Source: Eledone cirrhosa (taxonomy: Eukaryota). Taken from it: 64,000 bases of DNA. The notes beneath the pieces are model-generated. The model saw only the letters and a program-made list of their open reading frames with translations. It was not told the DNA's origin and ran no database searches. Positions 1,266-57,610 of the stretch are shown here, in pieces. Within the stretch, counting starts at the first letter, position 1; each line of letters begins with the position of its first letter. Position numbers and translations under genes: made by a program. The DNA lies in NCBI GenBank assembly GCA_964016885.1, contig OZ024748.1, positions 4,278,001-4,342,000 of the forward strand. Direction: 5' to 3'.

Positions 1266-1459
1266 GGAAGAAGTATGACCCGGACGGCCGAGCTCAATCC
1301 GTTTCGACGGCTAATTCTGGACTCAGAATTACCCGTCGAAACGGATTGAGCTCTGCCGTCGGGGTCATACTCGTTCCTATTACCCACTCTACTACCCTAA
1401 GTATTGAGTACTTTGGTGCGTTATGGTCCATTTGGTTCCTTACCACATTTCCTTCGTTA
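1266..1459 (+). mobile_element. Family C fold-back element with the 3' half of a hammerhead (PLE pLTR-like)
   Basis: About 55-bp inverted arms centred near 1320. The right arm reads GTC-GAAAC-GG..GAGCTC..GCC-GTC-GGGGTC, followed by a shared tail ending TTCCTTCGTTA. Flanked by (TA)n on both sides. Confidence 0.75.
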
Positions 1460-1555
1460 TATATATATATATATACACATATATATATATATATATATAT
1501 ATATACATATATATATATATATATATATATATATATATATATATATATATATATA

Positions 1556-1652
1556 ACAAAGAAGTTGTGTGTTAAGATACCAGGTGGACCATAACGCATC
1601 GAATCTAGTTTTCTAAACAGCCGGAGCTTAGCCGTCAGGGTCCTGACTCTTT
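1556..1652. mobile_element. Diverged, rearranged family C fragment
   Basis: Reverse complement of the family C tail (AACAAAGAAGTTGTG...GGACCATAACGCA) joined to GAGCTTAGCCGTCAGGGTCCTGACTC. Confidence 0.6.
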
Positions 1653-4600
1653 ATATATATATATATATATATATATATATATATATATATATATATATAT
1701 ATATATACATATATATATATATATGCATTATAGGATTATTGTATTAGTATTAAGATTGAAATATGGATTACGAATATGAAACACAGATGTATGAACGTAA
1801 CACGTAAAGTTACATGCATAGTTGCATGTATGTATACATGCATACATATATACACACATACATGCGTTTATAAAGATTTACGCAAAAATATGTAAATGCA
1901 TATAAATTTATATATATATATATATATATATATATATATAGGAACGTAAAAAAATATATGTACATGTGTGTGTATGTGCGTGAGGTGTTGTGAGTGTGTG
2001 TATGCAAGTAGATATAATTGACAGTTGGGAATGTAGAGAAAGAAGAAAGAGAGAAAGAAAGAGAGAAAGAAAGAGAGAAAGGAAGAAGGAGAGAGAGAGC
2101 AAGGTATGAAAGCTCTCACGATATTAGACACTCCGCCATTAATATGAGAAAAAGTACGTCAAAACTACGAACCAAAACACATTCTGTATATGACAAAGCA
2201 TTAAAGAAAACATTTTCTAAATTCATTGAATATATTTTCTTTTTGTCTCATCAAAAGTAAAATGTAAAATGTAAAATGATTGTATGATGTGGGTATATAT
2301 ATATGTATATATATATATATATATATATATATATATATATATATATATATATATATATATATATATATATATATATATATATATATATATATATATATAT
2401 GTATATATATATATATATATATATATATATATATATATATATATATATATATATATATATATATGTATATATATATATATATATATATATGTATATATAT
2501 ATATATATATATATACATATATATATATATATATATATATATATATATATATATATATATATATATGTATATATATATGTATATATATATATATATATAT
2601 ATGCATACATGTGTGTGTATAATGTATATTTATACATACGTATATATATGTGTATGAATGTATATAAAAAATATATGTATGCAGGTTTATAAATATGTAT
2701 ATATATATATATATATATGTATATATATATATATATACATATATATATATATATATATATATATATATATATATATATATATATATATATATATATATAT
2801 ATATATATATGTATTTATATATGTATATATATATATAAATATATATGCATACGTGTGTGTGTATAATGTATATTTATACATACGTATATATATGTGTATG
2901 AATGTATATAAAAAATATATGTATGCAGGTTTATAAATATGTATATATATATATATATATATATATTTGTGTGTGTGTGTCTATCTATTTCTCTCTCTCT
3001 CTCTCTCTCTCTCTCTCTCTCTCTCTCTATATATATATATATATATATATATATATATATATATATATATATATATATATATATATATATATGATATATA
3101 TGTATATATATGCATGTGTATATTCACATGCAGAAACACACGCAAACAAACATACACACACACACAAAAGCATTCACAAAATCACAGACACACGCACACA
3201 CACAAACATACACATACATATACACACACACATACACACATACCCTCACATATTCATTGTCATCACTTAATTTTACAAGCGAAAATTGGAAATATATTTG
3301 GCAGATATTGTTAAGTTATGTACTTAACATAACATGCAATTACATTTTACCTGTAGAATATTATATAAGAAATATTGACGTAAGGGTCGGGATAGTGTAA
3401 GGAGAGGTGGGTCTGGGGATTTGGTTGGCATCTAAGTGTGGTGGAAGTTTGGTGGAGGACTGGTGGAGAGTTGGTGTTTAAGAGTAAGTGTGAATGCGTC
3501 TAGATGGCAAAATGTATGGCTAATAGGTTTTGTGTCACGTCTATATATATATATATATATATATATATATATATATATATATATATATATATATATATAT
3601 ATACATATATATATATATATGTATATATATGTGTGTGTATATAAGTATGCACATATTCATACATTCCCATACACACATGCAAATATACATACATACATAC
3701 ATACATACATACATACATACATACATATATACATACATATATACATTCATACACACATATATACATGTTAAATAAAATGTATTATAGCAACAGAAAATTT
3801 CAATATTTAAAAAAATCATGAGTGAATAAAATTTCCATAATTCCCACCGAAAAAAAAAAAAAAAAAAAAAAAATATATATGTATATATATATATATATAT
3901 ATATATGAGTGTGTGTATATATATATATATATATATATTTACATACATACATACATACGTACATATATATATATATATATATATATATATATATATATAT
4001 ATGAATATGCATATAGAACCATATATGTATATAGGTGTACTTATACATATGTACTCATTCATTGTCTATATGTATAGAGAGAGAGACTGAGGAGGGGGGG
4101 GGGCAAGAGGTAAATGAGAGGAAGGGGATCAGAGAGAGGGAGAGAGAGAGAGAGAGAGAGAGAGAGAGAGAGAGAGAGAGAGAGAGAGAGAGATGTATAA
4201 TATAAATGAATTTATTTTCAGTGAGTCACGCTTTTATGCTAAACTTTAAAAAAATATTATTGTGTTTATTATCCCTCTTTATCCTCCTCCTCCTCCCCTT
4301 CATCATCATCATCATCATCATCATCATCATCATCATCATCATCATCATCATCATACATCATCATCATCATCATCATACATCAAAGAGTATTCTTAGTATT
4401 TCAAACAGATTATATCAGTACCATTTCCCCCAAAACGTGCACATACAATATATATGGATATACAGGTATATGTGCATATATATATGGATATATATATATA
4501 TATATATATATATATATATATATATATATATATATATATATATATATATGTATATACGTATATATATGTGTATATATATATATACATATATATATATATA

Positions 4601-6760
4601 TATATATATATATATATATATATATATATATATATATATATATATATATGTATATATATGTATATATATATATATATATATATATATATATATATATATA
4701 TATATATATATATATATATATATATATATATATATATATATATATATATATATACATATATATACATATATATACATATATATATATATATATATGTATA
4801 TATATATATATATATATATATATATATATACATATATATATATATATATATATATATGTATAAGAGCCTGTACAAGTATATGTATATATATGTATGTATA
4901 TATATATATATATATATATATATATATATATATATATGCATGTGGGTGGCTAATTGTGTTAAAAATATTATATTTTTCATTAGAATATGTAAACATATTA
5001 AACAGCATTATACAATATTACGTACAATCTCTTGCAGAAAGCAGAAACTGACATACCGTATCGTGTCGTGAAATCTTCTTACATTGTAACCCACAGATGA
5101 TCTCTCATCACTGAAGCCTTAAGTTTCATGGCGTCGTTTTTTTTACATTATATGTCTATATATATATATATATATATGTATATATATATATATATATATA
5201 TATATATATATATATATATATACATATATATATATATATATATATATAAATATATAAATATATAAACTTAGTCTCACATTTATTATTATTACTATATATA
5301 TATATATATATATATATATATATATATATATATATATATATATATATATATATATATATATATATATATATGTATATATATATATATATGTATGTATATA
5401 TATATATATATATATATATATATACATATATATATATATATATATATACATATATATATATATATATATATATATATATATATATATATATGTATATATA
5501 TATATATATGTATGTATGTAAGTATGTATAAATATTGCATAAACTACAATGGCGTCTTGTACATTTTTGGGGAAGTTTATGAAGTATTAGGCAAAATAAA
5601 ATTTCAAGATTTAATTTTATTTCCCGTAATATTAACAAAATATTACGTAACTTTCCTTCATATTGCAATAGAGAAGAAGGAGAAAAGAAAAAAAGAAAAA
5701 GAAGAAAAAGAAGAAAAAGAAGAAAAAGAAGAAAAAGAAGAAAAAGAAGGAAAGAAAAAGAGAAAAAGGAAAAGAAGAAGCAATTTATTCAAAGCAACGA
5801 AAGACACTAAACAGAATTGTTGTTGTCGTTGTTTTTGCCACAGGTGTTTGTTGTTGCTGCTGTTATTGCTGCTCTTGTTGATGTTGTTGCTGCTGTTATT
5901 TTTGTTGTTGTTGTTGATGTTCTTACTGCTATTGTTGTTGATGTTCTTACTGTTGTTGTTGCTGTTGTTATTGTTGTTGCTGATGCTGTTGATGTTGTTA
6001 TTGTTATTGTTGTTGTTATTGTTGCTGTTGATGTTGTTGTTGATGATGATGTTGTTCTTATTGCTGTTGTTGTTTTTGTTGTTGTTGTCCTTATTGTTGT
6101 TGCTTTTGTTGTTCTTAATCCTGTTGTTATTACTGTTGTTGTTATTGTCATTATTATTACTGTTGTTGATATTGTTGTTGTTGTTGTTTTATCATTGTTT
6201 GTGTTGTTGTGGTTTGTGTTCTTGATGGCGTTGTTTGTTTTGTTGTTGTTGTTGTTGTTATTGTCATTGTTTGGTTTGTTGTATTTTACCTTGTTGTTGT
6301 TGTTTGAGGTGCTGTTGTCGATGGTATAATTTGTGTTGTTGATGTTGTTTTAGATGCTATTGTTGTTGTTATTGTTATAGTTTATGTTGTAGCTGTTATT
6401 GTTGTTGTTGTTATTAGTATAGTTTGTGTTGTAGCTGTTGTTGTTATTGTTGTTATTGTTGTTATTGTTGTTGTTATTACTATAGTTTGTGTCACGACTC
6501 GTATACTAGAGCATTATAAATATTCAGTGCGATATAGCCAAACTAAGATTGATTACACTAGTTGTAAAACATCACATACTCGCCAATACACTCCACAGAC
6601 TCTCACAACTATTATTTCAATATATTTCAATATTTCCTCAGTTTTCTATCACACGGAGACTAACCAAAACACCCCTACTTTCACCACCATTGCTGCCGTC
6701 ACTAAGTTCTGAGTTCAAACCCTAGCTAGGTTTATGTGATCTGCTATGTTCTATCTGTAC

Positions 6761-56659: not shown

Positions 56660-56756
56660 ATAATTGTTTCTACTTTTGGCACAAGGCCAGCAATTATTCC
56701 AGTGTATTACTGGTACTTTATTTTATCGACCCCCGTATGGATGAAAGGCAAAGTTA
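56660..56756 (-). mobile_element. SINE1 3' fragment
   Basis: Core and tail present. Confidence 0.8.
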
Positions 56757-57186
56757 ATAGCTGATAACTATAAATAATGTGAAAATTGGGTAAAGTACCA
56801 CTGGGGCGAGATTGTGAGAGATAGAGATAGAAAGAGCGAGAGAGGGAGAGAGAGAGAGAGGTGGAAAGGAAAAGAAAGAAGGAAAGAAGAAAGAGTGGGA
56901 AGTGGACAGTTTGACCAGCTGGACAAAAGGTATCGTCCCCTCCACCTCATATAAATGTTTTTCTCATTTTAATGTGTTTTATATCTATGATTGCATCTGT
57001 ATATACATGCATTCATACATACACATATAAACGTACGCATACACACAGACACACAGACGCATACACACACACACACACACACATATATATATATATATAT
57101 GTATTTATATATATATATATATATATATATATACACAATACATTAACAGAGAAAGCTTTATGCTATACTCGTATATATATATATAT

Positions 57187-57390
57187 AACGAAGGAATTGT
57201 GGTAAGGAACCAGATGGACCATAACGCACCAAAGTACTCAATACTTAGAGTAGTAGAGTGGGTAATAGGAACAAGTATGACCCCGACGGCAGAGATCAAG
57301 CCGTTTCGACGGCTATCTCTGGACTAAAGTTAGTCCAGAAATAGCTGTCGAAACGGCTTGAGCTCTGCCGTCGAGGTCATACTTGCTCCT
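57187..57390 (-). mobile_element. Family C fold-back element
   Basis: Reverse-complement tail and a palindrome centred on GGACTAA-AG-TTAGTCC. Confidence 0.8.
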
Positions 57391-57549
57391 ATATATATAT
57401 ATATATATATATATATATATATATATATATATATATATATATATATATATATATATATGTATATATATACACACACACACACACATATATATATATATAT
57501 ATATATATATATATATATATATATATAGAGAGAGAGAGAGAGAGATAGA

Positions 57550-57610
57550 TAGGAAAAGAGTCAGGATCCCGACAGCTGAGCTCCGGCCGTTTCGACAGCT
57601 AGATCCGAAC
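57550..57610. mobile_element. Family C left arm, same subfamily as 29861
   Basis: ...GGCCGTTTC-GACAGCTAG-ATCCGAAC. Confidence 0.7.

Follow-up and report, generated by a model that had tools for sequence, protein, structure and literature searches.

The origin of the inverted repeats, tails and pseudo-long terminal repeats (pLTRs) of Penelope-like elements (PLEs) is stated as open in PMC8557442, PMC2377424 and PMC3846280. Here we analyse family C, a repeat found in a 64-kb stretch of the Eledone cirrhosa genome (contig OZ024748.1, C8:4278001-4342000; hereafter the window), a genome of 3.0 Gb that is rich in microsatellites. Many copies are short head-to-head palindromes. We propose, as the reading favoured on balance, that these palindromes are PLE 3' stumps, made by priming from the two strands of a cut (TA)n tract at a pair of internal RNA sites, run-off of the complementary DNA (cDNA) within loop II of a hammerhead ribozyme (HHR), and end-joining.

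Among described systems, Hydra-clade PLEs are defined by RW[RK], DKT, a CxCX5C linker, CxxC and CxH, plus a GIY-YIG endonuclease (EN) at the C terminus (Craig et al. 2021, PMC8557442). Family C resembles them in its single open reading frame (ORF) of ~720 aa, with RW[RK], DKT, CxCX5C and CxxC/CxH around E and N, in its C-terminal GIY-YIG, (TA)n target, partial tandems and inverted 5'-truncated copy, and in a tail at one end only. In contrast, canonical HHRs are called universal in the Hydra clade and the tail measures 30-40 nt (PMC8557442), whereas family C has a U3-A8 core, a loop II of 33-45 nt and a tail of ~80 nt, in a unit of ~3.5 kb. The HHR of Hydra-1_oBim is a different, canonical one (PMC8557442). 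Frangieh et al. 2024 (PMC11167929) describe an in vitro system in which the protein of Poseidon_Ac (PAc) cuts the two strands and extends each of them, with two internal reverse transcriptase (RT) starts that bound the tail; the template is uncleaved RNA, HHR activity is dispensable, and the activity of this anole PLE protein is independent of ribozyme cleavage. However, the available text of that paper neither traces inverted repeats back to two-sided priming nor reports run-off at the RNA start, and the strict pairing of one tailed with one tail-less arm is family C's. The hammerheads of the Schistosoma PLE Cercyon (Cervera and de la Pena 2014, PMC4209133) share with family C the U3-A8 core and the location in the pLTR, and HHR pairs on opposite strands, 100-700 bp apart, were noted there. 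Nevertheless, Cercyon HHRs are minimal, whereas family C has a helix III of 5-6 bp and a long loop II with a breakpoint hotspot. Finally, the head-to-head pLTRs of Adineta vaga and D. virilis Penelope (PMC3846280, PMC2377424) show a palindromic junction, an optional tail and an initiator (Inr)-like pLTR motif. They were read as self-priming on an antisense template, whereas the family C copies favour two sense-templated cDNAs, each primed separately.

The window contains ten loci of family C, six of them palindromic. In a typical copy, (TA)n flanks both sides; between the two runs, a short antisense arm is followed by a centre that varies and then by a long sense arm extended by 80 nt. Across the genome, the exact 15-mer of the arm has at least 73,009 matches (reversed control 0) and short head-to-head palindromes number at least 15,747 (control 0). 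Judged by these zero-match controls, the abundance of the repeat is far beyond chance.

The element from which the arms derive was sought by fetching distant inverted arm pairs from the 15-mer matches, and ten loci were examined for ORFs. The same RT/GIY-YIG ORF lies between or beside the arms in five of them (L091-L094 and L097), where the arms run on into pLTR and ORF; L095 carries a fragment of this ORF. In L094 it is uninterrupted over 719 aa (3080-5239), with the motifs FDIE, FDVSMG, YRDDG and YIGLT. Self-matches of L094 reveal a partial tandem of the pLTR and an inverted 5'-truncated copy, with a tail on one end that extends in frame into the ORF region; the ~80-nt extension of the long arm is the PLE tail. 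The protein has RWR, DKT117, CNCPDRSIC572, CNLC670 and CKH, a C-terminal EN, and neither CCHH nor IFD. Hence it carries the Hydra-clade motif set, and by eye its RT3-4 region fits the two Hydra rows of Fig. S1 in PMC8557442; insertion into (TA)n is a further Hydra-clade trait. A single RT plus GIY-YIG ORF linked to the repeat is as expected of EN+ PLEs, and the partial pLTR tandem, the inverted 5'-truncated copy and the one-ended tail (L094; 36 of 37 pairs) are likewise as expected of them. Among 8,000 candidates scored, 2,054 are protein homologues, the best of which bears PF01541; a Pfam scan of the 719-aa ORF itself returned no family. Taken together, the motifs and the by-eye RT3-4 comparison identify family C, almost certainly, as the 3' end of a Hydra-clade PLE.

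Other assignments were dropped. Neptune, Nematis and Naiad do not fit in motif order and linker. A miniature inverted-repeat transposable element (MITE) does not agree with the asymmetric ends, the variable centres and the RT ORF between long arms. Non-LTR (long terminal repeat) retrozymes have units of 150-400 nt. They are tandem repeats, each with a complete type I HHR (bioRxiv 2026.07.22.740005), whereas family C copies stand head to head and lack the 5' core. Two further ORFs were seen near family C arms: a different RT/GIY-YIG ORF in an inverted-repeat copy at L101:2862-6733, and a Hydra-like ORF, ~41% identical to that of family C, at L112:4027-5631.

In long copies the arm is preceded by ACCCC-YTGANAA-GNT-CGGCTA (5,839 arms). 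The native hammerhead core is thus UUGANAA (U3-A8) and not CUGANGA. The original prediction had expected full copies to carry GACCCC or GGACCC followed by CTGANGA directly upstream of helix II. Instead, CTGANGA occurs within 30 nt of just 43 of ~70,000 arms, matches that junction sequence or adjacent families account for, and neither hexamer precedes it in any of 30 inspected cases. It had also held that the copies contain no CUGANGA, and this is right: none of the 34 CTGANGA sites of the window (13.4 expected) falls in a copy, and their excess probably reflects other hammerhead families together with (TGA)n tracts. The native helix II 5' strands are G-N-T-CGGCTA and, in an older group of 130 arms with CAGCTA in place of CGGCTA, G-T-T-CAGCTA. 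In 1,500 of the 5,839 arms, C occupies position 3 opposite A8; this C3/A8 sub-lineage is predicted to be inactive, and in one such copy the hammerhead is not the minimum fold. The sub-lineage (e.g. L147, L163) has been widely amplified, with 1,500 detected arms.

One native copy (L091) is predicted to fold as a type I hammerhead (z -2.87), in which three helices surround the core and the 3-8 pair, G10.1-C11.1, GAAA and NUH are all present. Across 27 native copies, 89% of the cells pair, U3-A8 is found in 25 and G10.1-C11.1 in all 27. In helix II, both partners have changed at three pairs, of which the search pattern fixes one; the changes amount to one or two events at the subfamily level rather than many. 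Helix II covariation, as cited before, did not hold, since GACGGCTA and GACAGCTA are reverse complements of the 3' strand, so that one strand was seen twice; the covariation of native copies is real at the subfamily level. An Rfam search of the native ribozyme gave no hammerhead match, and Rfam on the window gave microsatellite and hairpin noise among the 150 listed of 475 matches. Six U3-A8 spellings searched in the available text of PMC3088659 were not present there. The canonical CUGANGA hammerhead, a descriptive Hydra-clade trait, is replaced in family C by YTGANAA. On these motifs, family C is a Hydra variant whose protein agrees with the clade and whose ribozyme core deviates.

To describe the arms, we count nucleotides upstream (minus) and downstream (plus) of G12 of GAAAC, and take as arm extent the distance upstream of G12 to which an arm matches native sequence. 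The sample drew on the window, six adjoining 10-kb tiles and the loci surrounding the first 100 of the arm 15-mer matches; it gave 139 unique arms, of which 4 were removed (cut context or spurious match), leaving 135. Inner ends lie within 25 nt of G12 in 110 of the 135 arms, most often at 17-19, with the peak at a conserved TTAGT of loop II; of the rest, 3 stop at 26-47, 1 stops at 48-68 and 21 lie further upstream. The outer ends are fixed: tail-less arms meet the TA run at +39..44 in 70 of 74 cases and tailed arms at +117..125 in 54 of 61. Both sites, ~80 nt apart, read TAT in the internal copy of L094. In 36 of 37 short pairs, one arm is tailed and the other tail-less; the tail-less arm is the longer in 19 of these 36, the tailed arm in 9, and the two are equal in 8. 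At the centres, the arms overlap by 0-3 nt in 19 of 37 pairs and by more in 5, and bases are inserted in 13, three of these being cases of poor reference fit.

A second class of copies lacks the palindrome. In 511 genomic copies, a tail-only antisense arm stands head to head with an arm that reaches -18; among 100 of them listed, 2 carry native sequence beyond -25, by eye. In sampled copies the two arms have just a few bases in common, so fold-back cannot have made one arm as a copy of the other: there is no palindrome to collapse and no common sequence for fold-back. In addition, L034, L035, L031, L047 and L055 show family C arms in head-to-head junctions with other PLE families, and the ENs of the L034 and L035 partners are 29-43% identical to that of family C; these joins come from a biased search. 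One centre recurs in 30 of 30 loci selected by likeness to the copy at 1266 and is common to several subfamily variants, which fits a hot junction. Contigs from four public runs, compared with 1266-1450, have joints that depart from the short arm at 1310-1323 to many places in the tail; the kind of these runs is unrecorded, they may stem from the assembly's own sample, and they are not counted as independent support. Two further observations concern the junctions. In L045, L050, L060 and L040, the centre holds a hairpin of 30-130 bp of non-family-C sequence beside a family C arm. Elsewhere, up to ~12 T stand just before the -18 boundary (C1 229164190, C1 229934593, C2 97589049, C1 55270256), possibly through non-templated A-tailing of the cDNA end.

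We favour the following scheme, of which two-sided priming is the firmest part and probable. The element's enzyme would cut both strands of a (TA)n tract, and one complex would prime both strands of the break, one at ~+60 of the RNA and the other at ~+140. Both cDNAs would run off near +1 inside loop II, be trimmed, and be joined head to head by microhomology-mediated repair. The 5' end of the messenger RNA (mRNA) would carry just the 3' half of the ribozyme; half of the ribozyme would be absent from the palindromes because the template RNA would never have held it. Long copies could arise if a read-through RNA is primed within its downstream pLTR, or by a jump across a 41-nt redundancy from +1 to the cleavage site. 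Published in vitro work provides a precedent for the priming step, in which the PLE protein cleaves and extends both strands from two internal starts that bound the tail (PMC11167929). A bolder and tentative version starts from a ribozyme-internal promoter, from which the mRNA would start with half a hammerhead (5' end) and close with a complete one (3' end), with the 41-nt redundancy acting like retroviral R. With a single RNA as template, an RT dimer would then make two strong-stop cDNAs (~60 and 140 nt), one on each strand of the break; most would be fused as palindromes, and those that jump would rebuild the pLTR. If true, a ribozyme-internal promoter would supply the missing mechanism for pLTRs, tails and inverted repeats.

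The inner boundary falls at -18 to -21. The sequence TTAGT occupies -20..-16 of loop II in each of the two subfamily groups (29 + 30 copies), which differ at the loop positions around it, and the A at -18 belongs to T[TC]AGT. This motif resembles the arthropod Inr consensus. We infer that T[TC]AGT may act as a transcription initiator with the A at -18 as +1, and cDNA run-off at such a start in loop II appears somewhat more probable than other origins of the boundary. Among 3,930 elements with both arms at -18, a non-native G precedes both arms in 308 and a non-native A in 8. Copying of a 5' cap would yield such a G. A passage on cap copying was looked for in the available part of PMC13000458 and none was found. 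Penelope has an internal pLTR promoter with an Inr and a downstream promoter element (DPE) (PMC2377424).

The same stop is seen in sequence unrelated to family C. A second palindromic family of the window, again with a short and a long arm in (TA)n, occurs at 27617-27753, 27971-28107, 28478-28588 and 41186-41316. Its short arms end at or after a native TTAGTTT, which none of 12 passes (17 arms found; by eye). The copies at 27617-27753 and 27971-28107 are a local tandem duplication of ~354 bp. The boundary rule appears to hold in several PLE families of the genome.

A number of points weigh against the proposed scheme. The mRNA start within loop II is a prediction. Many arms extend to -19 to -21, which would call for a heterogeneous or A-tailed start. 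Of the 50 listed centres with G before both arms, about half read CTG/CAG; the G excess could be explained by templated insertion of CTG/CAG copied from the arms, and AGT microhomology is used with or without a G. The exact-15-mer ascertainment under-counts arms that end within the helix II 3' strand. Folding beats shuffles in two of four native copies (z -2.87, -2.38, -0.80, -0.37). Both arms belong to the same subfamily in 31 of 37 pairs, against 15% of random pairs, and the mean arm-to-arm difference is 2.8 within pairs against 6.3 at random; such likeness within an element weighs against a pure two-RNA model, and fold-back or gene conversion would predict it as well. Finally, in vitro both start sites were used on both strands (PMC11167929), so the strict pairing of tailed and tail-less arms is not given by two-sided priming alone; the one-of-each pairing suggests an asymmetric complex on one RNA, which must be assumed.

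The best-surviving alternative keeps the two-sided priming and places the boundary at an RT stall, or at a protein-bound or processed RNA end, in loop II. The inner loop II stem predicted in L091, which spans -21..-14, and the scatter of the boundary across -12..-25 speak for it. However, RT is already past the helix II 3' strand at the boundary, TTAGT is kept while loop II varies between subfamily groups, an unrelated family also halts at TTAGT, and the excess of G at -19 adds to the points against a stall; we consider this origin of the boundary unlikely.

Less probable still is a single cDNA, primed at the tail site and truncated, that folds back on microhomology or self-primes on antisense RNA, with central deletions following later. 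Subfamily variants common to both arms would agree with such an origin, as would the hairpin-like captured sequences at the centres of L045, L050 and L060. Long palindromes are unstable, in keeping with later loss of the centre. Self-priming is also the published reading of PLE head-to-head repeats (PMC3846280). What argues against it is that the tail-less arm is the longer one in most unequal pairs, that the 511 tail-only partners keep the same boundary without a palindrome, that inter-family chimeras occur and that the tail-less outer end is fixed. Propagation of the palindrome as a fixed unit, as a non-autonomous element or MITE, is very improbable: the outer ends are constant and one centre recurs among the copies chosen for likeness to that at 1266, but centres vary widely, ends are asymmetric, arms lead into an RT ORF with no transposase seen between them, and the recurrent centre crosses subfamily variants, as a hot junction would. 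The snap-back of nascent cDNA at hammerhead helix II with self-primed second-strand synthesis, as proposed in the original prediction, is rejected: junctions do cluster near helix II, which is stable and covarying in native copies, but such cDNA has to cross loop II and the 5' strand, so that the entire loop would remain in antisense, a junction with no match to a pattern spanning the two main subfamilies, a single arm out of 135 has its end in the 5' strand of helix II or the core (-48..-68), and the evidence from 57550 and 29861 had been misread.

The window copies illustrate these arrangements. They hold the helix II 3' strand, GAAAC, helix III with its GAGCTC loop (as stated before), GUC and GGGGT, and neither a family C ORF nor an upstream pLTR was found within the 64-kb window. 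On the plus strand, the palindromic copy at 1264..1457 lies within (TA)n and joins a tail-less antisense arm (1264-1324) to a tailed sense arm, with G12 at 1338 and a tail of ~80 nt ending in TTCGT. In the palindrome at 17545..17749 (plus), both arms reach the A at -18, with a few additional central bases, and a non-native G precedes the sense arm; in that at 19185..19392 (plus), the centre holds a templated insertion copied from arm sequence. The copy at 12112..12224 (plus) is head to head and not palindromic, with a tail-less antisense arm (to ~12175) and a tail-only sense arm that meet at a TGA microhomology; it is impossible as a fold-back product. Two palindromes lie on the minus strand with the tailed arm on the left, at 52577..52770 and at 57185..57391, the arms of the latter extending to -21 and -20. 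A diverged palindrome at 55032..55240, without strand assignment, is centred at ~55180 and has partial tandem duplications of its left arm and no recognisable tail. Beside it, a single tailed arm (55255..55375, minus) ends at -12, joined to (TA)n. The older subfamily is represented by a tailed arm at 29860..30006 (plus), with the 17-nt antisense stub GACAGCTAGATCCGAAC in front, and by a single tail-less arm, entirely antisense, at 57550..57612 (minus), which ends near -17 to -20. Since reverse-complementing native -17..-1 of the older subfamily gives GACAGCTAGATCCGAAC, the sequence at 57550-57610, earlier taken for the helix II arm and loop in sense, is an antisense arm and nothing more, and the locus at 29861, described as non-inverted, is a long arm with a 17-nt inverted stub. 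The earlier count of about ten copies agrees with the ten loci, and their description as mostly palindromic with six of these. Palindrome centres near 1320, 17607, 19247, 52713, 55180 and 57328 do differ among copies, and the inversions are independent at each insertion, as had been supposed; the copies are remnants of a hammerhead-bearing retroelement without the ribozyme 5' half, and not MITEs.

Further head-to-head palindromes of the window, at 8774-9062, 9400-9533, 45761-45835, 52382-52539, 58635-58822, 58906-59016 and 61489-61585, probably belong to other PLE families. The family at 58635 has a CAGGCTAAAA...TTTAGTC stretch in common with family C loop II, and loci related to the family at 61489 contain CTGATGA...GAAAC.

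Published work already covers inverted pLTRs with tails as well as U3-A8 cores, and the architecture itself is known. New here are a family of Hydra-like PLEs whose ribozyme is non-canonical and its very large collection of minimal insertions in head-to-head form. We found no paper stating the two-sided run-off model; most subscription papers lay outside the search, so its absence from print is not established. For PLE biology, searches limited to CUGANGA miss PLE ribozymes. Overall, at least 15,747 independent junctions of one family are enough to discriminate among PLE models. They speak against self-priming and in favour of priming from two sides, with run-off where the RNA has a defined end, and family C copies make the question of PLE inversion directly testable.

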